Below are positions 10,643-61,325 of a stretch of DNA of 64,000 nt, in pieces; the stretch's first letter is position 1, and each line of letters opens with the position of its first letter. Under the pieces are notes generated by a model. That model worked only from the letters and a program-made list of their open reading frames with translations. It did no database searches and was not told the DNA's origin. Origin of the DNA: an uncultured Hyphomicrobiales bacterium (GTDB lineage: Bacteria > Pseudomonadota > Alphaproteobacteria > Rhizobiales > BM303). The stretch spans positions 628 to 64,627 of the forward strand of contig CAZHLV010000085.1 of NCBI GenBank assembly GCA_964533415.1, in the 5' to 3' direction. The position numbers were made by a program, and so were the translations under genes.

Positions 10643-10659
10643 GATTGTTATCCTCCCCT

Positions 10660-29641: not shown

Positions 29642-29780
29642 GATTTGGCTTCCCGTTTGTTTTTACAATTCAGCCTATCAGAAATATCCCCGGCTTTGGA
29701 ACCCTGAATGGATCATCCAGGTGAGGTTTATCCTTCCCGTATTGACAGGCTTCGGTTTGCTCTGTACGGATCGTGGAGAT

Positions 29781-29998
29781 GGTTCCTTTGCCGGTGCAAG
29801 CTGGATGAGGATAATAGGGAACACGGTGAGGCGCGTTTTGCCGATGCCGTGGCTGCCCCCGCAACTGTGAGCGACGAGTTGCCGGTCCGAAAGACCACTG
29901 GATATCCGGGAATAACGGATTCCGGGAAGGTCAGGATTGGCGGCGATGAAGCGCAAGCCAGGAGACCTGCCATCTTTAAATCGCCATTGCGATGAACC
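29781..29998 (+). promoter_or_regulatory. Cobalamin (B12) riboswitch
   Basis: Core aatagggaacacggtgagg...gctgcccccgcaactgtgagcg and B12 box aagccaggagacctgcc at 29955-29971. The ends ggttc (29781) and gaacc (29994) can close P1. Confidence 0.85.
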
Positions 29999-30050: not shown

Positions 30051-30099
30051 TTCTCCTTTTCGCAATGGCTTGAACCTTGTTGAAGGATGTTAAGGAGAA
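30051..30099 (+). promoter_or_regulatory. Putative anti-SD/SD sequestering pair of the riboswitch expression platform
   Basis: ttctcctt (30051-30058) is complementary to the SD aaggagaa (30092-30099), which lies 5 nt upstream of the ATG at 30104. Confidence 0.5.
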
Positions 30100-30103
30100 A
30101 GAT

Positions 30104-30781
30104 ATGCATATTGAACCGGGAATTGTTCAGGGCGCAAAGATTTTTGCAAGCTATGGAACGGCGGCCGCTTCGCTTGGTTACACGGCGAAGCTGGTTATGA
30201 ATTCGGTGAGAAAGGACGGGCTTGTCTCGCTGGCTGCCCGAAGCGCCATGGCAACGGTGCTGGTATTTTGCTATTTTGAGGTTCTTCCTCATTACCCGAT
30301 CGGCGTATCGGAGGTGCATCTTATCATGGGATCGACCCTGTTCCTGATCCTTGGCCTGGCGCCTGCCGCGATTGGCCTTGCGGCGGGTCTGCTCATTCAG
30401 GGTCTCTTTTTTGCGCCTTTCGATCTGCCGCAATACGGCATCAACGTGACAACACTTCTGGCGCCGCTCTTTGCCATGAGCCTGCTGGCCCAAAAGGTCA
30501 TCCCGCAAAATGTCGCCTACAAAGATCTGAAATATTCTCAGGCCCTGGCGCTCTCAACCGCCTATCAGGGCGGGATTGTAGCCTGGGTGGCGTTCTGGGC
30601 GTTTTATGGCCAGGGCTTTGGCAGTGCAAATATGGCCCAGGTCCTGACCTTCGGTTCGGCCTATATGACGGTTATCATCCTGGAGCCGCTCGTGGACTTG
30701 GCGGTGCTGGCCGGGGCCAAGCTTCTTTATGGCCTGAAAGACAGCGGCATGGTGGAAAAACGCCTCTATTCAGCCGCCTGA
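30104..30781 (+). CDS. Solitary CbiM/ECF-S-component-like membrane protein (cobalt or cobamide uptake candidate)
   Basis: Part of ORF 30077..30781. The ATG at 30104 follows AAGGAG. The N-terminus MHIEPG resembles the CbiM MHIxEG motif. The protein is polytopic and I see no cbiN/Q/O genes nearby. Confidence 0.7.
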   Translation: MHIEPGIVQGAKIFASYGTAAASLGYTAKLVMNSVRKDGLVSLAARSAMATVLVFCYFEVLPHYPIGVSEVHLIMGSTLFLILGLAPAAIGLAAGLLIQGLFFAPFDLPQYGINVTTLLAPLFAMSLLAQKVIPQNVAYKDLKYSQALALSTAYQGGIVAWVAFWAFYGQGFGSANMAQVLTFGSAYMTVIILEPLVDLAVLAGAKLLYGLKDSGMVEKRLYSAA

Positions 30782-30846
30782 AATCAAGGGAGGCCGGCAG
30801 GGTTGGAACCTTGCCGCCTTTCTCTGCCAGGCATCAGGATTTACAG

Positions 30847-30876
30847 GAGCGCGGTTTTGTTAAACCGCGCTCTTTG
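30847..30876 (+). terminator. Rho-independent terminator
   Basis: Perfect 11-bp stem gagcgcggttt/aaaccgcgctc with loop tgtt, followed by tttgg. Confidence 0.7.
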
Positions 30877-31033
30877 GATTCATGGCGGGTTGAATATCGC
30901 CAATACAGAATCCGGTAATTCAGAATTATTCCAGATTTTGATTTGACAGTACCTTTTTGCCTGTATCAAGAAAGATATTGACGGGGTCCGTGACGCCGTT
31001 TTTGTCCACCTGTGACAATAGGCGTCATGGACT

Positions 31034-31060
31034 ATATATTATAAATAACTAATATATTAT
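31034..31060. promoter_or_regulatory. AT-rich direct repeat ATATATTAT-N9-ATATATTAT upstream of the Mrp/Nuo-like operon
   Basis: Copies lie at 31034-31042 and 31052-31060, inside a strikingly AT-rich patch of an otherwise GC-rich window. The repeat lies about 105 nt upstream of the first ORF. Confidence 0.35.
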
Positions 31061-31166: not shown

Positions 31167-31709
31167 ATGCGATCACCTGTGTTTGTGCGTCTGGCGGAAG
31201 GGACAGCGAGCGTCAACAAGCGCCGTTTTGCCCTGACCATGGCGGGGATTTTCGTTGTCTGGATGGCGCTTGCGGGAAAACTGACGCTGGCTGAAATCCT
31301 GGTGGGGCTGGCGGTTTCGGGTGGTGTTGCGCTGCTGAGCCAGAGCCATTTGTCGATGCTGGATGATCTGAAGCTTTCGGTATCCCTCCCTTTTGATTTG
31401 CTTCGCTATTTCGCGGTGTTTTTCTGGGCGCTGTTGCGGGCCAACCTTGACGTGGCCCGGCGCGTGGCTGCGCCGCGTGTGCAGATCAATCCGGCTATTG
31501 TCGAAGTTCATACCGAACTGAAATCGGATCTTGGAAAATTATGGCTGGCCAATTCCATTACCCTCACCCCCGGTACTTTATGTGTTGATGTCGTTGGCGA
31601 AACGCTCAAGGTCCACTGGATTGATATTTCCCCGGGCGCGGATATCGAACATGCCACCCGCGAGATCGCCGCCCGGTTTGAAGGGCTGCTGAAGGAGTTT
31701 TTGCAATGA
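31167..31709 (+). CDS. MrpE/MnhE-family antiporter subunit (MbxA-position)
   Basis: 180 aa. MAGIFVVWMALAGKLTLAEILVGLAVSG... is typical of the MnhE N-terminus. The start could be later (ATG at 31239). Confidence 0.7.
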   Translation: MRSPVFVRLAEGTASVNKRRFALTMAGIFVVWMALAGKLTLAEILVGLAVSGGVALLSQSHLSMLDDLKLSVSLPFDLLRYFAVFFWALLRANLDVARRVAAPRVQINPAIVEVHTELKSDLGKLWLANSITLTPGTLCVDVVGETLKVHWIDISPGADIEHATREIAARFEGLLKEFLQ

Positions 31710-31990
31710 TCGCTCTGGATTTGAGCTTTTTGGGCGGGTTTGCATTTCTTTTGGTATTGCTGGCCATTGTGCTGGCGGCGGCGCGGTTGCTGATGGGGCC
31801 ATCCATTCCAGACCGGGTTGTGGCAGCAGATGTGCTGGGGGTTATCACCACGGCGGGGCTGGTGTGGCTGGCCAGTGCGCTTGATAACGCTATTTATCTC
31901 GATATTGCGCTGGTTTATGGCGCGCTGGCCTTTGTCGGCGTAGTCGCCATTGCCCGGGCATTGGAGAGCAACAAGGGTAACAAGGGTTAG
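31706..31990 (+). CDS. MrpF/MnhF-family subunit (MbxB-position)
   Basis: 94 aa with 3 TM segments and a PSIPDRVVAADVLG motif typical of MrpF. ATGA overlap with the upstream gene. Confidence 0.75.
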   Translation: MIALDLSFLGGFAFLLVLLAIVLAAARLLMGPSIPDRVVAADVLGVITTAGLVWLASALDNAIYLDIALVYGALAFVGVVAIARALESNKGNKG

Positions 31991-31999
31991 GGGCGGCGC

Positions 32000-32308
32000 A
32001 TGGAAATCATTGGTGATCTGTTTTTCCTGATCGGCGGCATCTTTTTGTTCATGGGTTCGCTGGGACTGGTGCGTATGCCGGATGTTTTCAACCGCATTCA
32101 GGCCGGGGCCAAATCGGCAACGCTGGGCTCGCTGGGATTGATACTCGGCGTATTCTTTTATCACCCGGACTGGTGGGCCAAGCTGGCGATCATTGCCATG
32201 TTCGTGCTGATTACCTCGCCGGTGGGCTCCTCCACCATCGCGCGGGCGGCGCTGAGCATGGGGATTAGGCCCTGGGCGACACGCTCACGCGAAGGAGAGG
32301 GCGAATGA
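32000..32308 (+). CDS. MrpG/MnhG-family subunit (MbxC-position)
   Basis: 102 aa. GSLGLVRMPDVFNRIQAGAKSATLG is typical of MnhG. Confidence 0.8.
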   Translation: MEIIGDLFFLIGGIFLFMGSLGLVRMPDVFNRIQAGAKSATLGSLGLILGVFFYHPDWWAKLAIIAMFVLITSPVGSSTIARAALSMGIRPWATRSREGEGE

Positions 32309-32568
32309 CCATTTTAATCACGCTGATTGTTGGTGTCATGCTTCTGGCAGCGGTGGCTGTCGTGGTGCTCCGCGGGTTTTTAGCCGCGGTTGCAGCGCTG
32401 GCGGCGGTTTCGCTGGCACTTTCGGTTTTGTTTGTGCTGCTGCGCGCGCCCGATGTGGCCCTGGCGGAAGCTGCGGTTGGGGCCGGGCTGTCGGGGGTTT
32501 TGCTGGCGCTCACCTTGCGCCGGGTCGGGTTGTGGCCGGGCGGATCTGCGCGGGAGGATGAATCATGA
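32305..32568 (+). CDS. DUF4040/MbhD-like small membrane subunit (MrpB N-terminal part; MbxD-position)
   Basis: 87 aa. LRAPDVALAEAAVGAGLSGVLL is typical of the MbhD/MnhB N-terminal domain. Confidence 0.7.
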   Translation: MTILITLIVGVMLLAAVAVVVLRGFLAAVAALAAVSLALSVLFVLLRAPDVALAEAAVGAGLSGVLLALTLRRVGLWPGGSAREDES

Positions 32569-33263
32569 AGGGATATGGCCATACCGCCGCAAGCTTGCTG
32601 TTTCTGACCGGTCTTGGAATCTTGCTGATGGCCTTGCTTCAGGCGCTGCCCTTTGGCCATGCACCCATGCAGGTGGGGCAGGCGATCGTGGCTGCCGCGC
32701 CGGGGGATACGGGGGCGGATAATATCGTTACGGCGATTTTGCTGGGCTATCGCGGGCTGGATACGCTGGGCGAGGTGACGATCTTGTTTGTTGCCGCGTC
32801 TGCCGCCGGGATGGTGCTGGGCAGCGCCCGGCGCGGTGAGGCGCAGGCGATAAATGCCGGTTTTATCTTGCATAGCGCGGCTTATCTGCTGTTTCCCTTC
32901 CTGCTGGTTCTGGGGGCATATATCGTGTTGCACGGGCATCTGACCCCGGGCGGCGGTTTCCAGGGCGGTGCCATTCTGGCGGCAGCGTTTTTTGTGCCGA
33001 TCCTGGCTTCACCCGCCAGCCCGTTCAACCATCGCACCGCGGTGCTGGTGGAAGGTTTTGCCGGAGCCGCCTTTATCATGATCGGGCTTTATTCCCTGGT
33101 CGGCGGTTCAGCGTTCCTGACCCCCTTCCTTGGCAAGGGGGCGGCGGGTTCACTGTTTTCCGCCGGTTCCCTGCCGCTGCTGTATCTGGCCATTGGCCTG
33201 AAAGTCGGCTCGGAGCTAGCCGGTCTGATGGCGAGGGTTTCGGGCGGGGAGGCAAGCTCATGA
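32565..33263 (+). CDS. MnhB-domain membrane subunit (MbxF-position)
   Basis: 232 aa with an NIVTAILLGYRGLDTLGEVTILFVA motif of the MnhB family. Confidence 0.75.
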   Translation: MKGYGHTAASLLFLTGLGILLMALLQALPFGHAPMQVGQAIVAAAPGDTGADNIVTAILLGYRGLDTLGEVTILFVAASAAGMVLGSARRGEAQAINAGFILHSAAYLLFPFLLVLGAYIVLHGHLTPGGGFQGGAILAAAFFVPILASPASPFNHRTAVLVEGFAGAAFIMIGLYSLVGGSAFLTPFLGKGAAGSLFSAGSLPLLYLAIGLKVGSELAGLMARVSGGEASS

Positions 33264-33667
33264 GCGCGGGTGCAGTTCTTTATGCCGGGGCTATCGGTCT
33301 TTTCCTGATCGGCTTTTACGCCATGGTGGCCGAGCGCCATCTCATTCGCAATATTCTCGGGCTGGCACTGGTGGAATCAGGCGTTAACCTGCTGCTGGTC
33401 GCGGTGGGCTTTCGCGATGATGCCGCCGCACCGATTCTCAAGGCCGGTCAAAGCGCGGGCGCCATGGTGGACCCGTTGCCGCAGGCGCTTGTTCTCACCG
33501 CCATTGTCATTGGTTTTGGCGTGCTGGCGCTGGCGCTGGCGCTGGTTGTGCGGGTTTACCAGGCTTATGGAACGCTTGATGCGCGCAAGGTTGCCCAGTT
33601 GATGCGGGCGGAAAATGCAGCTGGCGGGTTGCCGGCAGTCAAGCCTCAGGCGGGGGCAAAATCATGA
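33260..33667 (+). CDS. MrpC/MnhC/NuoK-like subunit (MbxG-position)
   Basis: 135 aa. LIRNILGLALVESGVNLLLV is a NuoK/MnhC hallmark, including the membrane-embedded Glu. Confidence 0.8.
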   Translation: MSAGAVLYAGAIGLFLIGFYAMVAERHLIRNILGLALVESGVNLLLVAVGFRDDAAAPILKAGQSAGAMVDPLPQALVLTAIVIGFGVLALALALVVRVYQAYGTLDARKVAQLMRAENAAGGLPAVKPQAGAKS

Positions 33668-35124
33668 ATACGGTTCCGCAGATTGTTTTTCCGGTGGTGA
33701 TCCCGCTCATTGCAGCGTTTCTCTTGCCGATCGCCCGGCGCTGTCATGGCGGGTTTGGCGATATATTCGGGCGCGCGGCGGTTTTTGTTACCTTTCTCGC
33801 CGCGGCCTTCCTGGCCTGGCATGTGGCTGGCAGCGGGCCGGTAAGCTCGGCAATCGGTGGCTTTAAGGCCCCGCTGGGAATCGTGTTTTATGCCGACAAC
33901 CTGGCCATGGCATTCGTGTTGCTGCTCAATATCGGTGTCTGGCTGTTCTGGCCTGAAAGCGAGCATAAGGGCGCAGGGGCACAAACCCTCATCCTTACCC
34001 TTCTGGGCGGCGGCGCGGGGCTGGTGCTGTCGGGCGATCTGTTCAATATCTTCGTGTTTTACGAGATCGTCGCGGTGACCTCTTACGGGCTGGCGGCAAG
34101 CGGAGGTTCGGCGGCGGGCTTTGGCGCATCCTTGCGGTATTTGCTGCTCAGCGCGCTGGGTTCATCGCTGGCGCTGATGGGAATTGCGTTGGTCTATGCC
34201 ACCGCCGGGACGCTTAACCTGGCTGACCTGGCGCTGCTTGCGCCGCATGTCCTCAGGGGTCCCATCGGGGCGGCGGCCTTCTTGCTGCTGCTGATCGGTT
34301 TTGGCGTCAAGGCGGAGCTGTTTCCGGTCAATTCCTGGGTGCCGGAGGTCTATGCCAGCGCCCCGGTGCGGGTAACCTCGCTTCTGGCGGGGATTGTCTC
34401 CAAGCTGGCGCTGATCGTGATCCTGCGTTTTCTGGTGCTGGTTTTCCCGATGCCTTCGGCTTACGGCTTGTTGCTCGTGATCGGGATCCTGGGTGTGCTG
34501 GCCGGTGAACTGGCGGCGTATCGTGCACGGGATCTCAATTCCACATTTGCCTGGTCGTCGATTGCCCAGCTTGGCGTGATCGCCATCGCGTTTTCGATTC
34601 CAGGCCCGGCGGGTATTGCGGCGGGTATTGCTCTTGCCCTGCACCACGCGGTGGTCAAACCGGCGTTTTTCCTCATCGCGGATAAATGGCGCGGGGATGT
34701 GCTGTTTCTGGGCGGCGGGGCCAAGGCGGCGCCCTTTGTCGCCGCCCTGTTTGTCCTGCTTTCGCTCTCCATCATCGGAATTCCGCCGCTGCCCGGCTTC
34801 TGGGCCAAATACCTGCTGCTTGATGCAGCATTTTCCTCCTCCTCCCCGGTCTATGGGCTGGCAGCGGCGGTTGTTCTTGCCGGGGCCGTGATAGAGGCGG
34901 CCTATCTCTTCCGTGCCGCGGGCATTTTTTACGGACGCTCACCAACCGGTCGCGGCGTGCCGCTGTTTTTACTGGGTGAAATGGCCCCGGCCTTTGTGCT
35001 GGGCGCGGTTTTGATCGTTGCCATGCTCGCCCTGCCGGTTCTGGGGAGTTACATCACTTCCATGGCGGTGGAGGCGGCAGATGCCCCGGCCATTGCTTCA
35101 CAAATTCTCATTGGGGGGAAATGA
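33664..35124 (+). CDS. MrpD/NuoN-M-like proton-antiporter subunit (MbxH-position)
   Basis: 486 aa, polytopic, with a Proton_antipo_M-type core (FFVFYEIVAVTSYGL..., KAELFPVNSWVPEVY). Confidence 0.85.
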   Translation: MNTVPQIVFPVVIPLIAAFLLPIARRCHGGFGDIFGRAAVFVTFLAAAFLAWHVAGSGPVSSAIGGFKAPLGIVFYADNLAMAFVLLLNIGVWLFWPESEHKGAGAQTLILTLLGGGAGLVLSGDLFNIFVFYEIVAVTSYGLAASGGSAAGFGASLRYLLLSALGSSLALMGIALVYATAGTLNLADLALLAPHVLRGPIGAAAFLLLLIGFGVKAELFPVNSWVPEVYASAPVRVTSLLAGIVSKLALIVILRFLVLVFPMPSAYGLLLVIGILGVLAGELAAYRARDLNSTFAWSSIAQLGVIAIAFSIPGPAGIAAGIALALHHAVVKPAFFLIADKWRGDVLFLGGGAKAAPFVAALFVLLSLSIIGIPPLPGFWAKYLLLDAAFSSSSPVYGLAAAVVLAGAVIEAAYLFRAAGIFYGRSPTGRGVPLFLLGEMAPAFVLGAVLIVAMLALPVLGSYITSMAVEAADAPAIASQILIGGK

Positions 35125-35128
35125 TCTC

Positions 35129-37009
35129 ATGAGTCTTCTTGATATCCTCCTTGTTCTCTCTTTGCTTCTGACCGGCGGGCTTCTCATCTGGGGCCGTTTG
35201 CCCGGAGCAGGCTGGTTTGCCACCGTGGTTTATGCGTTTATGCTGGGTCTTGTGGCCATGGTCGGCATGCAGCTGGATGGCGGGACCGCCGCGATTCCTT
35301 CAAACCTTGGGTTTAGCGTTCTTGGCCAGGACATGAGCTGGCGGCTTGACGGGCTTGGCTGGTTCTTTGCCCTGTTGAGCGTTGGCGCGGCGTTTTTTGC
35401 AAGCTGGTATGCGAGCGGCGAATGGGGGGCCAGGCAAAAGCGTATCGGCATGCAGCATGGTTTGCTGGCGCTTAATGTGCTGGCCATGTTGCTGCTGCTC
35501 TCCAGCGGCGATCTGCTGAGCCTGTTCATCGGCTGGGAACTGGTGAGCTGGGCGGCATTTGTCATGATGACGCAAGGCGGCGGCGTGGCAATTGCGGCGG
35601 CTTACCGCTACATGATCTACGCGCTGGCCGGGGCCATGGCGGTGTTCGCCGGGATCATGCTGGTGCATAATGTGACCGGCGGATTTGGTTTTGCCGATCT
35701 GCATGCCGCCATCCCGGCCATGTCGGCGGGGCGGCTCTGGGTGCTGTTTGGCCTGTTTGCCGCCGGGTTCGGCGTCAAGATGGCGCTGATGCCGTTTCAC
35801 CTGTGGCAGGCTCCGGCCTATTCGGAAACCCCCGGCGCGTCTTCGGCCTTCTTGAACGCGGTTTCGGCGCGCATGGGGCTGTTTGCGCTTATCCTGGTGC
35901 TGGTCAAGCTGATCGGTCTGGGGGCGCTTGGCTCTCTTGCCATCCCCTTCACCTTCATGAGCGCCAAGAGCCTGTTGATGTGGGTGGCGGCAATCACCAT
36001 GGTGGTGCCGACCTTTATCGCGCTGATGCAGACCGATGCGCGGATGCTGCTCACCTGGCACGGTATCGGGCAAGGCGGCTACATGCTGCTGGGCGTTCTG
36101 GTGGGCACCTCGCTGGGCACGGCGGGCGGATTGCTGCATATCTTCAATTACGCCACCTATCAGGCGGCGCTGTTCCTGGCGGTAACGGCGGTTATCCACC
36201 GCGCCGGAACCTCGGATCTCGATGAGCTTGGCGGGCTGATTACCCGTATGCCATGGACCTATGTCACCTTGTTGATGGGCATTATCGGCCTAGCCGGTCT
36301 GCCGCCGATGAACGGGTTTGTCTCCAAGTGGATGATCTACAAGTCCCTGCTTGATGGCGGTCAGCCCCTGCTTTTGATTATGGCTTTTGCCGGCACGCTG
36401 GGAACGATCCTGAGCGTTTACAAGCTCATTCACAATATCTTCCTCGGGCAACTCAGGCGCGAGCATCAAGACCTCAAGGAAGCCCCGGTTTCCATGGTTC
36501 TGCCGATGCTGATTCTGGCGGGGATCGGTTTTGTCACCGGTTTCATGCCCGGCCTGGCGCTCGATATCACCGATATTGCCCAAAGGGCGATTGGCGGGGA
36601 CAGGCTTGCCCATCATCTGGGCGGCGTGGTTCTGGCCACGGGATCGCTCAACATGCTCTGGGTGGTCGGGGTACTGATCGGGGCGATTGGCGTTGGCGCG
36701 TTGATCTTCTACCTGCTCGGCAACCGGCGCCGGGAAGTGCACCAGTATGACAATTATGCCGGTGGGCATTTCCTCTCGGCCGATATCCGTTACCATTTCA
36801 GCCACGAGTTTTATCCCGGTCTGGCGCGGGTGATCGGCCCGTGGTATCGCGGCTCAATCGTGCGGGCCGAGCAGGGGATCGGCATATTTGTGAATGTGGC
36901 GGGCGATCTGTGGCAGGCGGTGTTCAAGGTTGCCTATACGCCGCTTTACATGCTGCTTGCCGTTGTGCTTGGCCTCATTCTTACCGGAACCGGGGGGATT
37001 GCCCTATGA
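35129..37009 (+). CDS. Second MrpD/MrpA/NuoL-like antiporter subunit with C-terminal extension (MbxH'-position)
   Basis: Part of ORF 35018..37009, with the start at MSLLDILLVL (ATG at 35129). The core contains LFIGWELVSWAAFVMM and KMALMPFHLWQAPAY. A tail of about 110 aa ends in one further TM segment. Confidence 0.8.
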   Translation: MSLLDILLVLSLLLTGGLLIWGRLPGAGWFATVVYAFMLGLVAMVGMQLDGGTAAIPSNLGFSVLGQDMSWRLDGLGWFFALLSVGAAFFASWYASGEWGARQKRIGMQHGLLALNVLAMLLLLSSGDLLSLFIGWELVSWAAFVMMTQGGGVAIAAAYRYMIYALAGAMAVFAGIMLVHNVTGGFGFADLHAAIPAMSAGRLWVLFGLFAAGFGVKMALMPFHLWQAPAYSETPGASSAFLNAVSARMGLFALILVLVKLIGLGALGSLAIPFTFMSAKSLLMWVAAITMVVPTFIALMQTDARMLLTWHGIGQGGYMLLGVLVGTSLGTAGGLLHIFNYATYQAALFLAVTAVIHRAGTSDLDELGGLITRMPWTYVTLLMGIIGLAGLPPMNGFVSKWMIYKSLLDGGQPLLLIMAFAGTLGTILSVYKLIHNIFLGQLRREHQDLKEAPVSMVLPMLILAGIGFVTGFMPGLALDITDIAQRAIGGDRLAHHLGGVVLATGSLNMLWVVGVLIGAIGVGALIFYLLGNRRREVHQYDNYAGGHFLSADIRYHFSHEFYPGLARVIGPWYRGSIVRAEQGIGIFVNVAGDLWQAVFKVAYTPLYMLLAVVLGLILTGTGGIAL

Positions 37010-37902
37010 TGACCTATGTGGCCGATTTCATCTTCATGCCGCTGATTGCCTTTGTCACCGGTCTGGGTCTCGTGCTGATGGCGCGCCGGGTGCGGGCCAA
37101 GATCGAGCGCCGGGTTGGCCCGCCGGTGTTGCAGCCGGTCTACGATATCGTCAAGCTTTATGCCAAGAAGACGCAAATCTCGCACGGGATCATGCATGAT
37201 CTGTCCATCATGATGCTGCTGGGCGGTTTTTTCACGGCGGAGATTTTCCTGCCCGTGCCGGGCTTTGACGGGCTTGCCGGGGAAGGCGATCTGATTACGC
37301 TGATTTATATCATGATGGTGCCGATGCTTGGCCTTGCGCTCGGGGTTGGCTCCTGCGCCAATCCGAACGGGTCTATCGGCATCTCCCGCGCGCTTACCGC
37401 GATGCTGGCCTATGATATCCCGTTTATTATCGCGGTCACCGGCGCCTGCATGGCTTATGGCACCACCAATCTGATCGAGATCGTGCAGATCCAGCAGGCG
37501 GGCGGACCGGCAAGCTGGGGTGCGGCGACCATGCCGCTTCTGGCCTTTGGAGGGTTGCTGGCGGTGCACGGCATGATGGGCAAGGAGCCGTTTGAGATTT
37601 ACATCGCGCCAGCCGAGATCGCCACCGGCCCGATGGTCGAGATGAGCGGCAAATATATGGGCGCGCTGTTCATCATGCAGTGTTTCCAGCTTTACACCAT
37701 CGGTGTCATTTACACGACCTTGTTCCTGGGCGGCGGTGAGAACTGGCCGTTCTTCCTCGCCAAGGTGTTTGGCGTGGTGTTCATCTCGGTGGCGGTGACC
37801 AATGTCTATGGCCGCTTCAAGACCGATACGGTGATCCGCTGGATGTGGAAATGGCCGACCGGGATCGCCCTTGCGGGTCTGGCGCTGGTGATGGCGAATT
37901 AG
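37006..37902 (+). CDS. NuoH/HycD/MbhM-like membrane subunit (MbxM-position)
   Basis: Part of ORF 36841..37902, with the start at MMTYVADF (ATG at 37006, ATGA overlap). RRVGPPVLQPVYDIVKLYAKK is typical of the NuoH family. Confidence 0.85.
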   Translation: MMTYVADFIFMPLIAFVTGLGLVLMARRVRAKIERRVGPPVLQPVYDIVKLYAKKTQISHGIMHDLSIMMLLGGFFTAEIFLPVPGFDGLAGEGDLITLIYIMMVPMLGLALGVGSCANPNGSIGISRALTAMLAYDIPFIIAVTGACMAYGTTNLIEIVQIQQAGGPASWGAATMPLLAFGGLLAVHGMMGKEPFEIYIAPAEIATGPMVEMSGKYMGALFIMQCFQLYTIGVIYTTLFLGGGENWPFFLAKVFGVVFISVAVTNVYGRFKTDTVIRWMWKWPTGIALAGLALVMAN

Positions 37903-37916
37903 GAAGGATAACAACA

Positions 37917-38663
37917 ATGAGTGACAAGCTTCCCGTCGTAGAAGATCAGCCCGAGGTCTGCCGCACTGTGGATGCCAGGGAGCGTTCATTGTGGACCAGG
38001 GTGATGGACCGGTTCGCCGATCACTGCCGCGCCCGCTCGCTTTTCGTGCTGCATTACTGCACCGGCTGCGGGGCGATCGAGCTGCCTCCCACCATAACCT
38101 CGCGCTTTGACATGGAGCGGGTCGGCATCTCGCCCATGGTGACGCCGCGCCAGGCGGATATCCTGCTGATTACCGGGTATCTTTCGGTCAAGACCTTGAA
38201 GCGGGTGATCTTGTCTTATGAGCAGATGCAGTCACCCAAATATGTGATCGGTTTTGGCTCCTGCACCATTAATGGCGGTATGTACTGGAACTCTTACGCC
38301 ACGGTGAAACGGCTGGACCAGTATATCCCGGCGGATCTGTTCATCGCCGGCTGCATGCCGCGGCCAGAAGCGGTGCAGCAGGTGCTGCTCAAGCTGATGG
38401 AGGATATTGATGCGGGCCGCGCCAGGGGCTGGCAGGATTATTACAAGAACTATGATCGTTATCTTGGCAACCAGCAGGCGCTGTTTGGGCCAAGCTGGCA
38501 CACGCCCACCGATGTGATCGCCGAGGCAAAGCATTATGGCTATCTGGCCGAAGGCACCACCGGGATTCATACGGACCTGCTGCTGGAGCGCAAGGAATAT
38601 GCCCTTGACCGTGTGCCGGAGGACTATCCCGAGCGCGGAGAAAACGAGAGGTTTTTGCCATGA
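37917..38663 (+). CDS. NuoB/[NiFe]-hydrogenase group-4 small-subunit-like Fe-S protein (MbxJ-position)
   Basis: The start at 37917 follows GGAAGGA. All four cluster cysteines are present: YCTGCGAIE, GSCTINGG and AGCMPRPE. There is a C-terminal extension of roughly 90 aa. Confidence 0.85.
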   Translation: MSDKLPVVEDQPEVCRTVDARERSLWTRVMDRFADHCRARSLFVLHYCTGCGAIELPPTITSRFDMERVGISPMVTPRQADILLITGYLSVKTLKRVILSYEQMQSPKYVIGFGSCTINGGMYWNSYATVKRLDQYIPADLFIAGCMPRPEAVQQVLLKLMEDIDAGRARGWQDYYKNYDRYLGNQQALFGPSWHTPTDVIAEAKHYGYLAEGTTGIHTDLLLERKEYALDRVPEDYPERGENERFLP

Positions 38664-39184
38664 GCATTCCTGCAAAACTTGAGGATGTCCTGCATGAAAT
38701 GCCGGGAATCAAGGTGCGGACAACAAATGACCGGCGGGTGCGGGTTGATCTTTCCCCCGATACCCTGCCCGCCTTGCTGGAGATTTTGAAAGGGCGGCTG
38801 GGCTATTGCCATCTTTCGGCGATTTCCTGCGTGGACTGGATGGAGACGGACCAGTTCGAGCTGGTTTATCATGTCTGGTCGCACATGCTAAAAACCATGG
38901 TTTCGGCGCATATCTTCATCTCGCGCGATCCGGGGCAGTTTATCTCGGTTTACGACATTCATACCCCGGCAGGCTTTTTCGAGCGGGATATCCACGAGAT
39001 GTTCGGGGTGCATTTTGAAGGCGCGCCCAATCTTGGCAAGTTCATCCTGACGAGCTGGGGCGGACCGCCGCCGATGCTCAAGGACTTCAATACCCGCGAA
39101 TATGTCGAGAAGACCTTTGACTGGGTTCAGTACAGCCCGGACTGGCTGAAAGACATTGAGGCCAAGGGCGGGGGGATCGAATAA
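38660..39184 (+). CDS. NuoC/30-kDa-subunit-like protein (MbxK-position)
   Basis: 174 aa with the FERDIHEMFGVHFEGAPN hallmark. Confidence 0.85.
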   Translation: MSIPAKLEDVLHEMPGIKVRTTNDRRVRVDLSPDTLPALLEILKGRLGYCHLSAISCVDWMETDQFELVYHVWSHMLKTMVSAHIFISRDPGQFISVYDIHTPAGFFERDIHEMFGVHFEGAPNLGKFILTSWGGPPPMLKDFNTREYVEKTFDWVQYSPDWLKDIEAKGGGIE

Positions 39185-40326
39185 TGCGTCCTGAAAACTA
39201 CCGCCCCGTCAAGCATCCGCCAAGCCATGAATACGAGTTGTATTTTGGTCCCAACCATCCGGGGATCGAGGGTAATTATGCCATCCGGGTGCGCCTGAAG
39301 GGTGATGTCATTATCGAGGCGATCGCCGATGGCGGCTATCTGCACCGTGGTTTTGAAAAGATCATGGAAGACCGGCTGTGGATCCAGAATGTGGCGCTGG
39401 TGCCGCGCATTTGCGTGCCCGATCCGGTGCCGATGGAAGAGACCTATTCGCGCGCTGTCGAGATGATCGGCGGGCTTGAGGTTCCCGAACGCGCCCAGTG
39501 GATCCGGGTGATGCTGCTGGAGATGTCGCGCATTTGCGCCCATCTGTTCACCTTTGGCGGCAATGCCGCCACCATCGGGCTTTACACCAACATGTTCTGG
39601 GGCGTGACCATGCGCGATTATTTCCTCGATCTGTTCGAGGAAGTCACCGGGGCGCGGATCTATCACATGTTCATCACGCCCGGCGGGGTGCGGCGTGATT
39701 TGCCGGAAGGGTTTTTGGGGCGTTTGTCTGACCTGCTGGATGAGCTGGAGCGGCGCACGCCGGAGTTTGAGGATCTGTTCTTTGAAAGCGCGGTGGTGAT
39801 AAACCGGGCCAGTGGCACCGGGATCATCACCCAGGAACAGGCGCTTTCATGGGGGGTGACGGGCCCCAATCTGCGCGCCTGTGATCTTCCTATCGATCTG
39901 CGCCGGGATGATCCTTATCTGGTTTATCCCGAGCTTGAGTTTGATGTCATCACTCAAGAGAACGGTGATGCGCTGGCGCGCATGATGGTGCGGCGCGGCG
40001 AGGTGATCCAGTCGATCCGCATCCTGCGCCAGGTGATCGAGCGGCTGCCCCTTGTTGGCGGACCGGTCCGGGCGCCCCTGCCCAACCCGCTGGCCTGGAA
40101 TCTCCCCGTGGGCGAGGCTTATGCCCGTACCGAATCCTCAAAAGGCGAGACGGCCTTTTACGTGGTTTCCGATGGCGGCCCGCGGCCCTACCGGGTGCAT
40201 GTGCGCGGGGCCTCTTCCATGCATGCGGTGCAGGTGCTGGAAAAACTGCTGGTCGGGGCGCGAATCGAGGATATCGCCCAGATCATGTTCTCGCTGGATG
40301 CCTGCCCGCCGGAGGTTGATCGTTAA
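39184..40326 (+). CDS. NuoD/[NiFe]-hydrogenase large-subunit-like protein with degenerate Ni-Fe site (MbxL-position)
   Basis: 380 aa containing GYLHRGFEKIME. The N-terminal motif reads PRICVPD (C77, D80) and the C-terminal motif reads LDACPPEVDR-stop (C374, E377). Confidence 0.85.
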   Translation: MRPENYRPVKHPPSHEYELYFGPNHPGIEGNYAIRVRLKGDVIIEAIADGGYLHRGFEKIMEDRLWIQNVALVPRICVPDPVPMEETYSRAVEMIGGLEVPERAQWIRVMLLEMSRICAHLFTFGGNAATIGLYTNMFWGVTMRDYFLDLFEEVTGARIYHMFITPGGVRRDLPEGFLGRLSDLLDELERRTPEFEDLFFESAVVINRASGTGIITQEQALSWGVTGPNLRACDLPIDLRRDDPYLVYPELEFDVITQENGDALARMMVRRGEVIQSIRILRQVIERLPLVGGPVRAPLPNPLAWNLPVGEAYARTESSKGETAFYVVSDGGPRPYRVHVRGASSMHAVQVLEKLLVGARIEDIAQIMFSLDACPPEVDR

Positions 40327-40327
40327 A

Positions 40328-42154
40328 ATGAGTGATATCAGACCAAAATACAAAGGCTCGCTGCTGCGCCCCATGAAAGCGCTCTCGTTCCTGTTTCGTG
40401 AACCGGCGACCTTGCCCATGGAACCGCGTGAGGCTTCTGAAATCTATCGCGGGTTTCACCTGAATGATTGGGAAAAGTGCATAGGTTGCGGCACATGCGG
40501 CGAGATTTGCGATAATTTTGCCATCCGCATGGCGAAGATTCCCGGTCTGCCCAGCGATCCGGCCAGGGGGGTCAAACCGCGCCGTCCGGTGATTGATTAT
40601 GGCCGGTGTTGCTGGTGTGCGCTGTGCGTGGATATCTGCCCCACCGGCTCGCTCTCCATGTCGCGTGAATATATTCATGTGAGCCGCGATCTCGACAGCT
40701 ACCTGATCCTGCCTGACGAAGCGGGCATGCACGCAGAAAACTTCCAGAAAGGCTGGGCAAAATCAGAGCATTCCGATCTGCTGGATCTGACCCGCCGCGC
40801 CATGGGCGAACTTGAACCTGAGGCCCGGAGTGATAATTTTGATGAAGTCACGAAAGGCTTTGATGCGCAAACGGCGCTGCTGGAGGCCTCGCGCTGCATC
40901 CAGTGCGGCATGTGTCACGAGGCCTGTCCGGCCCATATGCATGCGCCCGAATATATCCGCGCCATCTGGGATGGGGACATGGAGCGGGCGGTGGAAGAGA
41001 TTTACCGCACCAATCCCTTCCCGCATGTGTGCGGGCGCATTTGCACCCATCGTTGCGAGAGCGCCTGTTCCATCGGGCGGCGCGGCGATCCGGTGGCGAT
41101 CCGCTGGCTCAAGCGTTTTGCCATGGATCAGGTGGAGCCGGAAAAGGTGCAGGAGATTGCGCTGAAAAACGGTATTGCCAGATCCACGGGGAAAAAGGTT
41201 GCGGTGATCGGGGCGGGGCCTGCCGGACTGACGGCAGCCTTTGATCTGGCCAGGCTGGGGCACAAGGTGCGTGTTTATGAAGCGCGCCCGGAGCCGGGCG
41301 GCATGATGCGCTATGGCATACCCGAATACCGCCTGCCCTATGACAAGCTTGATGCCGATATCGAGGTGATCCGCAAGGCCGGGGTTGAGATCAGGTGCAA
41401 TGTACGGCTTGGTGAAAATGAGGATTTGCAGAACTTGCGCAGCCGCAACGATGCGGTGCTGATTTCCACCGGGCTCAATCTGGGCCGCTCGACGCGTATT
41501 CCCGGTTCCGATCACCCGCAGGTAGCCTCGGCCGTTGACCTGCTGGCGCGCATTACGCTGGGCGAGAATATCAAGGCCCCCAAACGCATTGCAGTCATTG
41601 GCGGCGGTAATGTGGCGTTTGATATTGCCCGCTCCATGGCGCGCTTGCAGCGCCAGCAGCACGGCAAGGTCAACATGACGGTGCTGGCGCTGGAAGAGCG
41701 CGGCGCCATGCTGGCGGATGAGGCGGAGGTGATCGAATCCGCCGATGAAGGCATCGTGCTCATCAATGGGCGCGGTCCCAGGCAGGTCAGGATCGAAGAC
41801 GGGAAAATGATTGGCCTGGAGACGGTCAATTGCCTGTCAATCTTTGACGAGGAAGGGCGCTTTCATCCCAGATATGATGAAAGTGACCTGATCCTGCATG
41901 ATGTGGACATGGTGATCGAGGCCATCGGGCAGATGTCGGACACAAGCTGGCTTGGCGAGGAACTGACCGAAGCGCTGGAGTGGCAGCGCGGGCGTATCGC
42001 GGTTGATGATGACGGGCGCACCTCCGAGAGCTGGCTGTGGGCGGCAGGCGATCTGGTGCGCGGGCCCGATGTCATTCACGCGGTGGCAGCAGGACACAAG
42101 GCGGCAAGCAGCATCCACGGCGCGATTACCGGCAAGAAGGGAGCTTCACGATGA
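40328..42154 (+). CDS. Fusion protein: NuoI/MbhN-like 2x[4Fe-4S] domain plus GltD/NfnB/SudA-like FAD/NAD(P)H oxidoreductase domain
   Basis: Part of ORF 40052..42154, with the start at MSDIRPKY (ATG at 40328). The Fe-S motifs are CIGCGTCGEIC, CCWCALCVDICP, CIQCGMCHEACP and CGRICTHRCESAC. These are followed by VAVIGAGPAGLTAA, GGMMRYGIPEYRLP and IAVIGGGNVAFD. Confidence 0.85.
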   Translation: MSDIRPKYKGSLLRPMKALSFLFREPATLPMEPREASEIYRGFHLNDWEKCIGCGTCGEICDNFAIRMAKIPGLPSDPARGVKPRRPVIDYGRCCWCALCVDICPTGSLSMSREYIHVSRDLDSYLILPDEAGMHAENFQKGWAKSEHSDLLDLTRRAMGELEPEARSDNFDEVTKGFDAQTALLEASRCIQCGMCHEACPAHMHAPEYIRAIWDGDMERAVEEIYRTNPFPHVCGRICTHRCESACSIGRRGDPVAIRWLKRFAMDQVEPEKVQEIALKNGIARSTGKKVAVIGAGPAGLTAAFDLARLGHKVRVYEARPEPGGMMRYGIPEYRLPYDKLDADIEVIRKAGVEIRCNVRLGENEDLQNLRSRNDAVLISTGLNLGRSTRIPGSDHPQVASAVDLLARITLGENIKAPKRIAVIGGGNVAFDIARSMARLQRQQHGKVNMTVLALEERGAMLADEAEVIESADEGIVLINGRGPRQVRIEDGKMIGLETVNCLSIFDEEGRFHPRYDESDLILHDVDMVIEAIGQMSDTSWLGEELTEALEWQRGRIAVDDDGRTSESWLWAAGDLVRGPDVIHAVAAGHKAASSIHGAITGKKGASR

Positions 42155-42663
42155 GCCAGCATGGCGAGGGGCACAAGGGCGCCCGTGAGCGTCTGGAGGG
42201 CATGAAGTCTTTGGAAGATATTCTTGAAACCGCCATGTCGTTTGAGGAAACCGCCGGGGCGTTTTATTCGGCGCTGAAAGACAAGGTGGGAAAACCGCTG
42301 CGCGAGCTTGTCGGGGAACTGGCTCTGGAAGAAGCAGAGCATTACCGCCTGTTCAAGGCGCTCAGGGACAACCCGGATATTGCCGGGCAATTATCCAGCC
42401 AGGTGCAGGCCCCGGCAGAGGATCATGATTTTTCCAGGTATATCCTGCTGCCGGACCTGGGAGAACATCCGGACGATCAGGCGATCTTGCAATATGCGCT
42501 GGCGCGCGAGGATGCGGCGGCCAAGCAATATGCCGACCTGGCGCAAACCACGCCGGAAGGACCGGTGCGCGACCTGTTCGCTTTCCTTGCCAGGGAAGAA
42601 ATCGAGCACAAGGCGGAGCTTGAAAAACGCTACTATCAACTGGTCCATGGCGGCGGCGTGTAG
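42151..42663 (+). CDS. Rubrerythrin/erythrin-like ferritin-fold diiron protein (no rubredoxin domain)
   Basis: Part of ORF 42037..42663. The ATG at 42151 overlaps the upstream stop (ATGA). The E-x6-Y ... ExxH pattern occurs twice: FEETAGAFY with EEAEH, and AREDAAAKQY with EEIEH. Confidence 0.7.
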   Translation: MSQHGEGHKGARERLEGMKSLEDILETAMSFEETAGAFYSALKDKVGKPLRELVGELALEEAEHYRLFKALRDNPDIAGQLSSQVQAPAEDHDFSRYILLPDLGEHPDDQAILQYALAREDAAAKQYADLAQTTPEGPVRDLFAFLAREEIEHKAELEKRYYQLVHGGGV

Positions 42664-42671: not shown

Positions 42672-42700
42672 CCGCCCGGGAGGATGAACTGTACGGGCGG
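42672..42700. terminator. Bidirectional hairpin terminator between the operon and convergent htpG
   Basis: Stem ccgcccg/cgggcgg with a 15-nt loop. It is flanked by aaaaa on the left (a T-run for the minus strand) and aattt on the right. Confidence 0.55.
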
Positions 42701-54912: not shown

Positions 54913-55941
54913 ATGGGTTACAAGGTTGCTCTTGTTGGCGCGACGGGAAATGTCGGCCGCGAGATGATGAACATTCTGGATGAACGCGGCTTTCCGGTCG
55001 ATGAGCTTGTCCCGCTGGCCTCGGCGCGTTCTCAGGGCCGCGATGTGTCTTTTGGCGATACAACCCTGAAAGTGCAGAACCTGGAAAATTATGATTTCAC
55101 CGGCACCGATATCGCCCTGCTTTCCGCCGGCGGCTCGATCTCGAAGGAATGGGCGCCGAAAATCGCCGCTCAAGGCTGCGTGGTAATCGACAACTCCTCC
55201 GCCTGGCGCTATGACAGCGACATTCCGCTGATCGTGCCGGAAGTCAACCCGGATGATATCACCGGATTTTCCAGGCGCGGCATCATCGCCAACCCCAATT
55301 GCTCCACCGCCCAACTTCTCGTGGCCCTGAAACCCCTGCATGACGAAGCCACCATCAAGCGGGTTGTCATTTCCACCTACCAGTCCGTGTCCGGCGCCGG
55401 CAAGGCCGCCATGGACGAGTTGTGGAACCAGACCAAGGGCATCTTTGTCACCGATTCGCCAAGCCCGGAAAATTTCACCAAGCAGATTGCTTTCAACGTC
55501 ATCCCCCATATCGACGTGTTCATGGAAGATGGCTACACGAAAGAAGAATGGAAGCTGATGGCGGAGACCAAGAAAATGCTTGATCCCAATATCAGGCTCA
55601 GCGCCACGGCGGTGCGGGTTCCGGTCTTTGTCGGCCACGGCGAGGCGGTCAATATCGAGTTTGAAAACCCGATCACGCCGGATCGCGCCCGCGAGATCCT
55701 GCGCGAGGCTCCCGGCTGCATGGTCATCGACAAGCGCGAAGATGGCGGCTATGTCACCCCGGTGGAATGCGTTGGCGATTATGCCACTTTCGTTTCGCGC
55801 ATCCGCGAGGACGCAACGGTGGAAAACGGCCTTAACATCTGGGTTGTTTCGGACAACCTGCGCAAGGGCGCAGCCCTGAACACCGTCCAGATCGCCGAGT
55901 TGCTCATCAACCGCGGCTTGCTCAAAAAAGACGCGGGCTAA
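54913..55941 (+). CDS. asd: Aspartate-semialdehyde dehydrogenase
   Basis: MGYKVALVGATGNVGREM N-terminus and active-site region IANPNCSTAQ. Confidence 0.93.
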   Translation: MGYKVALVGATGNVGREMMNILDERGFPVDELVPLASARSQGRDVSFGDTTLKVQNLENYDFTGTDIALLSAGGSISKEWAPKIAAQGCVVIDNSSAWRYDSDIPLIVPEVNPDDITGFSRRGIIANPNCSTAQLLVALKPLHDEATIKRVVISTYQSVSGAGKAAMDELWNQTKGIFVTDSPSPENFTKQIAFNVIPHIDVFMEDGYTKEEWKLMAETKKMLDPNIRLSATAVRVPVFVGHGEAVNIEFENPITPDRAREILREAPGCMVIDKREDGGYVTPVECVGDYATFVSRIREDATVENGLNIWVVSDNLRKGAALNTVQIAELLINRGLLKKDAG

Positions 55942-56974
55942 GCGTAACCACGCTGTTCTCTTCATCTTTCAGGTGAATACGCGCCTTCATGGCCGGGTTG
56001 AGATAGATCCGGCCATGATCGTCCACCAGCATGGCATATCTCACCCCCATGCGCTTGGCGATGCGGAACCAGTCTTCAGGTCCGGCCACCGAAAGCGCCG
56101 TGGCGGCGGCATCGGCATCGGCGCCACTGGTTCCGATCACGCTGGCCGAGACAATATGCTTCACCGGCCAGCCGGTGCGCGGATCGATGATATGCGAATA
56201 ACGCACCCCTTCATGTTCAAGGAAGCGCTCGTAATTGCCCGAAGTATAAAGCACCTCGCCGGGTTTCAGCTCAACGGTGGCAATCACGCCCCAGTTCTTG
56301 GGATGGCGAATCCCGGCGCGCCATGGCCGGTCAGAGTGAACCCCCATCACGTTGAGATCGCCGCCGGCGTTGAGGACCGCGTTCCTGATCCCGTGCGCTT
56401 TAAGCCGGATCACCGCCCGGTCCAGCGCCTCGCCCTTGGCAAAACCGCCAAAATCAAGGCTCACGTCTTTATTGCGCGAAGACACCTCATGCCCCTTGAT
56501 GACCAGATCCGCCACCTTTGGCCTTGAGGCCACCCAGGCCCTGATCGCCTCATAGGGCGGCGCGCGGCCCTTGGGCAGGTTATCGTCATGAAACCCCCAA
56601 TCGGCCACCAGCCCGCCGATTGCCGCGTTAAACAGCCCGTCACTTGTCCGTTCATAGCGCTGCGCCTGAAGCAGCAGCGGCAGCAGGAAATCACTCACTT
56701 GCACCGATTTGCCCGCCGCTATCGCCGCATTCAGGGAACTCAGTTCACCGGGTTTCCAGGCATGCCAGTCCTTGTGCATATGGCGAAATTCAGACCCGAC
56801 ATCTTTCAGCGCCGCCCGCGCGGTTGCCTTGTCCGAATCGCGGATGGTTATCTCGACAATCGTGCCAAAAACATAAAGTTTCTCGCGCAGTTCAGATTCA
56901 GGTTGCTTGCACCCGCCGGCAACCAGCAAAAAAACGAGACCAACAAGGATGCAACTAACGGATCTGGTCAGCAT
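55922..56974 (-). CDS. apbE: FAD:protein FMN transferase (ApbE family), lipoprotein
   Basis: Part of ORF 55922..57190, with the start at MLTRSVSCILVGLVFLLVAGGC (lipobox). The ApbE-like body includes NAGGDLNVMG and YSHIIDPRTG. Confidence 0.85.
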   Translation of the reverse strand: MLTRSVSCILVGLVFLLVAGGCKQPESELREKLYVFGTIVEITIRDSDKATARAALKDVGSEFRHMHKDWHAWKPGELSSLNAAIAAGKSVQVSDFLLPLLLQAQRYERTSDGLFNAAIGGLVADWGFHDDNLPKGRAPPYEAIRAWVASRPKVADLVIKGHEVSSRNKDVSLDFGGFAKGEALDRAVIRLKAHGIRNAVLNAGGDLNVMGVHSDRPWRAGIRHPKNWGVIATVELKPGEVLYTSGNYERFLEHEGVRYSHIIDPRTGWPVKHIVSASVIGTSGADADAAATALSVAGPEDWFRIAKRMGVRYAMLVDDHGRIYLNPAMKARIHLKDEENSVVTLSPRLF

Positions 56975-61316: not shown

Positions 61317-61325
61317 GGGGGGTGA

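Follow-up and report, generated by a model that had tools for sequence, protein, structure and literature searches.

MBS (formerly Mbx; structure 6U8Y), the membrane-bound sulfane-sulfur reductase of Pyrococcus furiosus, is regarded as an intermediate between the membrane-bound hydrogenases and complex I, and to our knowledge it has been studied only in this hyperthermophilic archaeon. An mbx-like operon has also been described in Thermotoga, Magnetococcus and proteobacteria, with NuoI replaced by a gltD-related flavoprotein and with an operon that "often terminates with rubrerythrin" (Degli Esposti 2015). Transcription of mbxA in T. maritima was reported to be up 4.4-fold on S0 (PMC9431562), and in 2024 a "putative Mrp-Mbx complex" was named in the sulfur-oxidising Riftia symbiont Endoriftia, where function and direction were left unassigned and the genes were co-expressed with those of sulfur-globule proteins, the reductive tricarboxylic acid (rTCA) cycle, hydrogenases and a V-type ATPase (PMC11636981). 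Here, an operon of this kind is described at positions 31167-42663 of a 64,000-nucleotide stretch (the window) of contig CAZHLV010000085.1 from an uncultured Hyphomicrobiales bacterium. It is predicted to encode a bacterial Mrp-Mbx (MBS-type) membrane complex with a 13-subunit core in MBS order, followed by a diiron protein. As to its function, an NADH-linked, ion-translocating sulfane-sulfur oxidoreductase, probably reversible and equipped with a peroxide guard, is the reading preferred here, tentatively and at a little short of an even chance.

Relative to P. furiosus MBS, the window operon keeps the 13-subunit core and its order, the fused E subunit, two pumps, the long extension of H', the MbsJ-type cluster motif and the MbsL-type vestigial cysteine pair. 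MBS is fed by ferredoxin through a plain 2x[4Fe-4S] MbsN, whereas the N predicted here is longer by an NfnB/GltD-like FAD/NAD(P)H domain that brings two further clusters. A diiron protein has also been added, and the host is a mesophilic proteobacterium; the proteobacterial version has a pyridine-nucleotide module in place of the ferredoxin input. No architectural difference separates it from the published bacterial mbx-like operons, which share the complete pha/mrp block, the NuoH-B-C-D homologs that follow it, a NuoD homolog with vestigial cysteines, a gltD-like flavoprotein joined to NuoI and a 3' rubrerythrin; the likeness to the T. maritima, Magnetococcus and Endoriftia operons is drawn from published descriptions and from Sedimenticola relatives rather than from direct sequence comparison. 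The original prediction, made from the DNA letters, had offered the locus as an undescribed system, which does not hold for an architecture already in print (Degli Esposti 2015; PMC11636981), although it does hold for the biochemistry: no biochemical study of the bacterial Mbx form was found in the literature searched. Its caution over donor, acceptor, coupling ion and direction was well placed, none of these having been experimentally assigned for any bacterial member. The window operon is another member of a known, biochemically uncharacterised kind and not a new system, and what is added here is the mapping of seven subunits onto MBS, the prevalence of sulfur oxidisers among the hosts, the closeness of the flavin module to NfnB, a YRR-to-ALE change within it and the arrangements of the diiron protein.

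Fourteen plus-strand open reading frames (ORFs) fill the region, at coordinates that agree with those predicted earlier, and each exceeds the Pfam gathering score for its predicted family. The ENA record of this contig, annotated with an independent gene caller, has the same set of genes, and departs from it in a start of H' placed 48 nt further upstream and in nothing else. All nine predicted start/stop overlaps were recovered from the ORF coordinates, eight of 4 nt (31706, 32305, 32565, 33260, 33664, 37006, 38660 and 42151) and one of 1 nt (39184), and at the remaining four junctions the genes stand 1 to 14 nt apart. The membrane-arm subunits, named after MBS (PMC10356935), are as follows.

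31167..31709, + strand: subunit A, MrpE-like, 180 aa; Pfam MNHE, 127 bits; first gene of the block conserved in 24 loci
31706..31990, + strand: subunit B, MrpF-like, 94 aa; Pfam MrpF_PhaF, 58 bits
32000..32308, + strand: subunit C, MrpG-like, 102 aa; Pfam PhaG_MnhG_YufB, 84 bits
32305..32568, + strand: subunit D, MbhD-like, 87 aa; Pfam MbhD, 60 bits
32565..33263, + strand: subunit E, MbsE-like, 232 aa; Pfam MbhE and MnhB, fused as in MBS
33260..33667, + strand: subunit G, NuoK/MrpC-like, 135 aa; Pfam Oxidored_q2, 85 bits
33664..35124, + strand: subunit H, MrpD-like proton-pump subunit, 486 aa; Pfam Proton_antipo_M
35129..37009, + strand: subunit H', the other antiporter-like pump, extended at its C-terminus, 626 aa (642 aa from the alternative start at 35081, gene call on L056); Pfam Proton_antipo_M
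37006..37902, + strand: subunit M, NuoH-like, anchoring the peripheral arm in the membrane, 298 aa; Pfam NADHdh, 164 bits

With J, K, L and N downstream, the order A-B-C-D-E-G-H-H'-M-J-K-L-N is that of the archaeal Mbx/MBS operon, in which the NuoH homolog comes before NuoB/C/D and the MrpD-like gene is present twice. The gene orders of Mbh, plain Mrp and nuo were each considered and none fits, as the original prediction had maintained and as the ORF order and Pfam families bear out. The same synteny was then sought in a relatives scan of one genome per species, which finds close relatives only. It returned 55 loci with L subunits 63-94% identical, and tblastn with all 14 proteins located the full set, in the same order, in 24 loci; loci truncated by contig ends hold colinear fragments. 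Gene packing and this conserved synteny suggest that the 14 genes are co-transcribed, and their colinearity in 24 loci, together with the adjacency of the N and diiron genes in 36, argues for one functional unit.

The peripheral arm carries the signatures on which the assignment to MBS turns. Its first three subunits are the following.

37917..38663, + strand: subunit J, NuoB-like, 248 aa; Pfam Oxidored_q6; proximal [4Fe-4S] cluster; C48-x2-C51, C116, C146
38660..39184, + strand: subunit K, NuoC-like, 174 aa; Pfam Complex1_30kDa, 83 bits
39184..40326, + strand: subunit L, MbsL-like, 380 aa; Pfam Complex1_49kDa; RIC77VPDP and DAC374PPEVDR

Seven subunits (L, J, M, H, H', E and the N-terminal part of N) were searched against all PDB sequences, and for all seven the matching chain of 6U8Y came out as the best match, or as the best-fitting match in the case of N, of which the N-terminal part was compared. 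Subunit L scores 378 bits against 6u8y_L (MbsL), followed by Thermus Nqo4 (260), MbhL (150) and HycE (117), and J scores 212 bits against 6u8y_J, the next best being 121. In the membrane arm, E scores 159 bits against 6u8y_E (235 aa) and 58 bits against 6cfw_F, M 173 bits against 6u8y_M and 67 bits against MbhM, and H 180 bits against 6u8y_H (MbsH). Subunit H' aligns with 6u8y_X (MbsH', 618 aa; 175 bits) from end to end, residues 9-618 against 8-613, and the alignment covers the region that forms transmembrane helices 15-16 and the lateral helix in MBS (PMC7684303).

Subunit J aligns to MbsJ without gaps, so that its cluster motif has the MBS length, and its cysteines C48, C51, C116 and C146, invariant in 28 sequences, correspond to C25, C28, C93 and C123 of MbsJ. 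Structural work on MBS revealed that this motif has three residues fewer than its counterpart in MBH, the membrane-bound hydrogenase, and that C28, C93 and C123 alone ligate the proximal [4Fe-4S] cluster, leaving C25 free (PMC7684303); by analogy, the proximal cluster in J should also be held by three cysteines only. A C-terminal tail of about 50 residues on J (about 195-248; 38500-38663) is not present in MbsJ or in the homologs from WOR-3, L061 and the Spirochaete. In L, C77 and C374 match C85 and C385 of MbsL and are conserved in 100% and 98% of 55 sequences, respectively, one cysteine being left in each CxxC motif and hence two of the four Ni-Fe cysteines of a hydrogenase, while the positions of H38 and Y87 of Nqo4 are taken by E and by V or C, i.e., the quinone His/Tyr pair is not there. 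MbsL likewise keeps two of the four Ni-Fe cysteines (C85 and C385) and is without the quinone His/Tyr (PMC7684303). The gapless J with its four cysteines, the L signatures and the replaced H38/Y87 positions place the predicted complex among the kin of MBS/Mbx rather than with complex I or a hydrogenase.

Database names point elsewhere: L passes the NCBIfam model NF004739, "NADH-quinone oxidoreductase subunit D" (420 bits, cutoff 360), and public records name it NuoD. A divergent complex I or group-4 [NiFe] hydrogenase, as these names would have it, is nevertheless barely credible. Complex I shares a homologous Q-module and antiporter-like subunits with the operon, and yet here the NuoE/F/G N-module, NuoA/J and the quinone His/Tyr are missing, whereas Mrp small subunits, among seven Mrp-type subunits in all, are present. 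As predicted, no nuoA/J/E/F/G or hyp/hyc gene was found among the Pfam-scanned ORFs of the window (some of those with 200 aa or more), in which the sole NuoF-like domain is that of RnfC (58513-60249). P. furiosus MBH and the group-4 [NiFe] hydrogenases have in common with the operon an Mrp-type membrane arm and a NuoB/C/D/H/I-like peripheral module, but here M precedes J-K-L, there are two pumps instead of one, two of the four Ni-Fe cysteines are lost, and the MBH scores are low (150 bits for L, 67 for M); L also stays below threshold for Pfam NiFeSe_Hases (18.5 bits against 25.8). For every subunit tested the MBS chain outscores those of complex I and MBH. By bit scores and signature residues, which are the basis of this classification, L falls neither inside canonical NuoD nor among the four-cysteine hydrogenases, either of which placements would have spoken against the original prediction. 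Public annotation is misleading for N as well as for L: JGI and NCBI records list N as "glutamate synthase small chain" or "FAD-dependent oxidoreductase", and such names, like the NuoD name of L, hide the complex from metabolic reconstructions.

Aside from this MBS-like core, the operon departs from the archaeal enzyme in its electron-input subunit.

40328..42154, + strand: subunit N, fusion protein, 608 aa; Pfam Fer4x2, Fer4_20 and Pyr_redox_2

Residues 1-141 form the MbsN/NuoI-like 2x[4Fe-4S] domain (residues 6-141 match 6u8y_N with 96 bits), and residues from about 158 to 603 are NfnB/GltD-like, with a further 2x[4Fe-4S] unit and two Rossmann folds, one for FAD and the other for a pyridine nucleotide (GGGNVA). 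The plain 2x[4Fe-4S] N through which ferredoxin enters MBS is therefore not what the operon encodes. Judged by sequence score, the flavin module is closest to NfnB, above GltD: the C-terminal 450 residues of N can be aligned over their whole length with NfnB of T. maritima (4ylf_B, 253 bits) and with NfnI of P. furiosus (5jca_L, 248), and GltD scores 175 bits. Conservation extends to the FAD and GGGNVA motifs and to all eight cysteines of the pair of NfnB-type clusters, and 17 cysteines of N are conserved at 97% or above. The NCBIfam model NF010590, "putative oxidoreductase", covers N end to end with 826 bits, below its cutoff of 946.

N shares with GltD and with NfnB, the large subunit of NADH-dependent ferredoxin:NADP+ oxidoreductase, the two [4Fe-4S] sites and the motifs for FAD and nucleotide, and differs from them in the NuoI-like fusion, in having no NfnA partner and at one position of likely importance for the donor. 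At the end of the second Rossmann β-strand, where NfnB has YRR, N has A454-L455-E456; A-L-E is found in the window protein and in every proteobacterial relative, and Y-R-R in three fused homologs from distant lineages as well as in NfnB and GltD. An acidic side chain at the strand end favours NADH under the general rules for Rossmann folds, and with the NADPH-type YRR replaced by A-L-E, NADH is the likelier donor to N than NADPH. Electron bifurcation was considered as the default for an Nfn-like module and set aside, the operon having no NfnA-like partner or second acceptor; no NfnA-like gene was found in the operon or the window. NfnA-like and NfnB-like genes do stand directly 3' of the operon at two loci only (L059, 11723-14151; L061, 11850-14101), which are the lineages whose fused N retains the NADPH-type YRR. 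A full-length NuoI-NfnB fusion of 605 aa was also found beside a formate-tetrahydrofolate ligase gene and outside any mbx-like operon (L060, 10001-13374), so that the fusion can exist alone. A review of the Nfn enzymes makes no mention of it.

More distant members were reached by a HMMER search with N of 1.8 billion representatives, which gave about 16 clusters (at 50% identity) with the full NuoI-NfnB fusion, some of them from candidate division WOR-3, Ca. Hydrothermae and Spirochaetaceae. Four loci with a fused N are listed here.

L058, WOR-3: the same 13 genes, without the diiron gene
L059, Spirochaetaceae: the same order with H and H' fused, then NfnA/B-like genes, without the diiron gene
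L061, GCA_975218695.1: rubrerythrin gene at the operon head, NfnA/B-like genes at the end
L062, GCA_054029235.1: 764-aa N with a C-terminal diiron domain

These distant fused-N operons keep the MBS signatures. In the Spirochaetaceae metagenome-assembled genome (MAG), H and H' form a single protein of 1150 aa (L059, 2562-6014), J is without the equivalent of MbsJ C25 and L without that of C385, while the three ligand cysteines are kept; the two cysteines lost there are the ones found dispensable in MBS mutants (PMC7684303).

The last gene of the operon encodes the second addition to the MBS plan.

42151..42663, + strand: ferritin-like diiron-carboxylate protein, 170 aa; Pfam Rubrerythrin, 45 bits; the gene overlaps the stop codon of N

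Its predicted ligands E32, E61-x2-H64, E120 and E150-x2-H153 are invariant in 37 sequences, and its AlphaFold2 (AF2) model is a four-helix bundle (pLDDT 82.7). A PDB sequence search with it gave marginal matches only, and Foldseek with the model ranked 2clb, 1vjx, 2fzf and 2oh3 best, none of them close; by fold it is nearest to the COG1633/Dps-like diiron proteins, at 18-22% identity to solved structures. With rubrerythrin and COG1633 proteins (TM1526, 1VJX; the S. solfataricus Dps-like protein, 2CLB) it shares the four-helix bundle and the E, ExxH, E, ExxH site, but it contains no cysteine and is without the C-terminal rubredoxin-type Fe(Cys)4 domain that marks rubrerythrin proper. It is a dedicated subfamily tied to the Mrp-Mbx operon. 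Three independent arrangements tie the predicted protein to the complex: its gene ends the operon next to that of N here and in 36 related loci; in L061 a rubrerythrin gene (513-974) is the first operon gene and not the last; and in L062 the diiron domain forms the C-terminus of N (10001-12295, P0241), with full-length homology to the window protein (E = 6e-12). The last of these provides good evidence of a physical working association between the diiron protein and the N module, and the protein probably belongs to the complex.

As for its role, the open-iron cluster of MBS is inactivated by oxidation (PMC7684303), the diiron gene is kept with the operon in proteobacteria of oxic-sulfidic interfaces, and it is not present in the WOR-3 (L058) and Spirochaete (L059) loci, both from lineages assumed to be anaerobic, a comparison that involves few genomes; a guard against peroxide or oxygen is on these grounds the simplest role. 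It would most likely act as a bound peroxide/oxygen scavenger that is fed from the N module and shields the open-iron cluster. That the diiron protein might instead be the true terminal site of an NAD(P)H peroxidase or oxidase, with the MBS-like site vestigial or regulatory, is very improbable. Such a view could draw on the invariant ligands, on the fusion to the flavin module in L062 and of similar ferritin-like domains to NfnA/GltD-like proteins (NF009413), and on structural neighbours that act on peroxide; it is countered by the WOR-3 and Spirochaete loci, in which the 13-gene core occurs without the diiron gene, by the strong conservation of the J/L/M site residues, and by the established mechanism of complex I-type coupling, which needs a membrane-proximal redox event and not one at the tip of the peripheral arm.

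The hosts of the 55 loci are Hyphomicrobiales, Magnetospira, Rhodospirillaceae and many Gammaproteobacteria, and the 24 genomes with the full set are mostly sulfur-oxidising Gammaproteobacteria, plus Hyphomicrobiales and Magnetospira. The gammaproteobacterial hosts belong almost all to sulfur-oxidising lineages, namely Thiomargarita, Thiotrichaceae, Ca. Venteria, Sedimenticola, Thiogranum and Thiohalobacterales, together with Ectothiorhodospiraceae, Thiolapillus, Chromatiales and Thiobacillaceae. In Thiomargarita, Thiotrichaceae, Ca. Venteria and their kin, L stands alone or only J-K-L are kept together (loci L014-L018, L020-L022, L024, L026, L054 and L055), with proteins 72-78% identical, and the operon is on this account fragmented in the giant sulfur bacteria. 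Clusters of flanking ORFs within 6 kb of the 55 loci contain no family seen in more than five loci, so that the 14 genes look self-contained. The complex is widespread in environmentally important sulfur oxidisers, including giant sulfur bacteria, Sedimenticola relatives and, reportedly, vent symbionts.

A link to sulfur is suggested by the sulfur-oxidising gammaproteobacterial hosts, the S0-induced mbxA of T. maritima and the co-expression of the Endoriftia complex with sulfur-globule proteins. In the preferred NADH-linked sulfane-sulfur reading, NAD(P)H, likelier NADH, would give hydride to the FAD of N, and electrons would pass through the four [4Fe-4S] clusters of N to the proximal cluster of J, which, as in MBS, would look onto a hydrophobic chamber that L, J and M enclose. 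The substrate cleaved reductively in this chamber would be a sulfane-sulfur compound, either polysulfide or a persulfide, and the redox step would power H+ pumping by H and H' and Na+/H+ exchange by the Mrp-like subunits A to G, as proposed for MBS. The potentials of NADH (about -320 mV) and of polysulfide/sulfide (about -260 to -270 mV) lie about 50-60 mV apart. With the two couples so close, the complex would work near equilibrium, in either direction according to the ion gradient and the sulfide level.

Several points weigh against the preferred reading. The assignment of substrate comes purely from homology, and that of NADH from one motif and general Rossmann-fold rules. The standard driving force from NADH to polysulfide is small for three ion-translocating modules, and MBS uses ferredoxin. 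Most hosts oxidise sulfur and do not reduce it, and the host bias is partly one of shared ancestry and habitat in a scan that recovers close relatives. No sulfur-metabolism gene recurs beside the operon among flanking ORFs within 6 kb at the 55 loci, none was seen among the examined genes of the 64-kb window, and the cysteine signatures of L are vestigial and non-catalytic in MBS (PMC7684303).

Some of the same observations leave room for an MBS-type machine with a non-sulfur acceptor, in which another hydrophobic or small oxidant would enter the chamber of an NADH-driven Na+/H+ pump. The residues that define the substrate of MBS are poorly known and its conserved cysteines non-catalytic (PMC7684303), the present host, a Hyphomicrobiales MAG, shows no sulfur genes in the examined 64 kb, and the operon has no conserved sulfur-gene neighbours. 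This alternative is still rather unlikely, given that J and L keep the motif geometry specific to MBS and a conservation of 60-80% between hosts, that L has no quinone-binding residues, that the Ni-Fe ligands are incomplete, so that H+ cannot be the acceptor, and that host distribution and expression data favour sulfur.

The close potentials bear in turn on a reversal of the same enzyme, in which, in sulfur oxidisers, an H+/Na+ gradient would drive electrons from sulfide or sulfane sulfur at the J/L/M site to NAD(P)+ and provide reducing power for CO2 fixation, bypassing the quinone pool and reversed complex I. Complex I-type machines are in general reversible, the two couples are nearly isopotential, and the gammaproteobacterial hosts are overwhelmingly sulfur-oxidising and largely autotrophic. 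The direction of the Endoriftia complex was left unassigned (PMC11636981), but its co-expression is with the rTCA cycle and hydrogenases and not with Sox/Dsr and Calvin-cycle genes (PMC11636981), the T. maritima homolog is induced with S0 as acceptor (PMC9431562), MBS has been shown only to reduce S-S bonds, and the window itself gives no evidence for reversal, which taken together make it an unlikely main direction.

A broader proposal, for which we see little likelihood at present, is that sulfur-oxidising proteobacteria use the complex to connect their sulfide/sulfane-sulfur pool with NAD(H), reversibly and in coupling to an ion gradient, including anoxic NADH respiration of stored sulfur, with the diiron protein as a true subunit. 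If it were true, ample sulfide and membrane potential would yield NADH directly from sulfide or polysulfide, skipping reverse flow through the quinone pool; anoxic NADH respiration of stored sulfur would supply the missing enzyme for the "sulfur respiration" of Beggiatoa; and the diiron subunit would let an oxygen-labile open-iron cluster function at oxic-anoxic interfaces. Even the coupling of NADH, sulfane sulfur and ions alone, if real, would bear on the balance of reducing power and on the use of stored sulfur without oxygen.

The operon lies among housekeeping genes, as had been predicted, with gpsA, tsaD, hemC, hemD, a HemY-family gene, an aldehyde dehydrogenase gene and htpG on its flanks. 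Directly upstream is a separate unit, and the 385-nt, AT-rich spacer 5' of the operon holds a candidate control region.

29763-29988, + strand: cobalamin riboswitch, Rfam RF00174, 109 bits; precedes the CbiM-like cobalt-transporter gene
30077-30781, + strand: CbiM-like cobalt-transporter gene, a separate unit directly upstream of the operon
30986..31040, + strand: candidate promoter/operator; sigma-70-like GTGACA-17-TATATT at 31012-31040 by consensus scan
30986-30997 / 31021-31032, + strand: inverted repeat GTCCGTGACGCC / GGCGTCATGGAC, overlapping the sigma-70-like site
42672..42700, no strand assigned: hairpin between the convergent diiron-protein gene and htpG; z = -1.5 on the plus and -2.1 on the minus strand; probable shared terminator

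Rfam found no regulatory RNA upstream of the operon besides the cobalamin riboswitch of the preceding gene. In a relative (L002, about 90% identical), conservation reaches from the start codon back to about 31000 and no further upstream. Two strong hairpins (z = -6.8) at 30795-30876 terminate the CbiM-like gene, one of which (30847-30876) has a perfect 11-bp stem followed by TTT. Of the hairpin terminators that were said to bracket the operon, this upstream one is real; the downstream one at 42672-42700 is present but weak, and its better T-run on the minus strand suggests that it is shared with, or mainly serves, htpG.

Elsewhere in the window, 13 kb downstream of the operon (55922-62674), an ApbE gene (- strand) accompanies an Rnf cluster (RnfC, D, G and E homologs, + strand), from which the same organism would also have a ferredoxin:NAD+ ion pump. 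A tungsten-type aldehyde:ferredoxin oxidoreductase (AFOR_N/AFOR_C, 614 aa) adjoins a Pyr_redox_2 flavoprotein at 4563-10642 (- strand), beside an ATP-binding cassette (ABC) transporter whose PBP_like_2 binding protein suggests tungstate or molybdate as a possible cargo; such genes are uncommon for a genome of Hyphomicrobiales type and suggest an anaerobic metabolism based on ferredoxin. Finally, a molybdopterin oxidoreductase (809 aa) adjoins a cytochrome c-domain protein at 14230-17718 (- strand), with a SulP-family permease gene beside this locus at 12569-14233.

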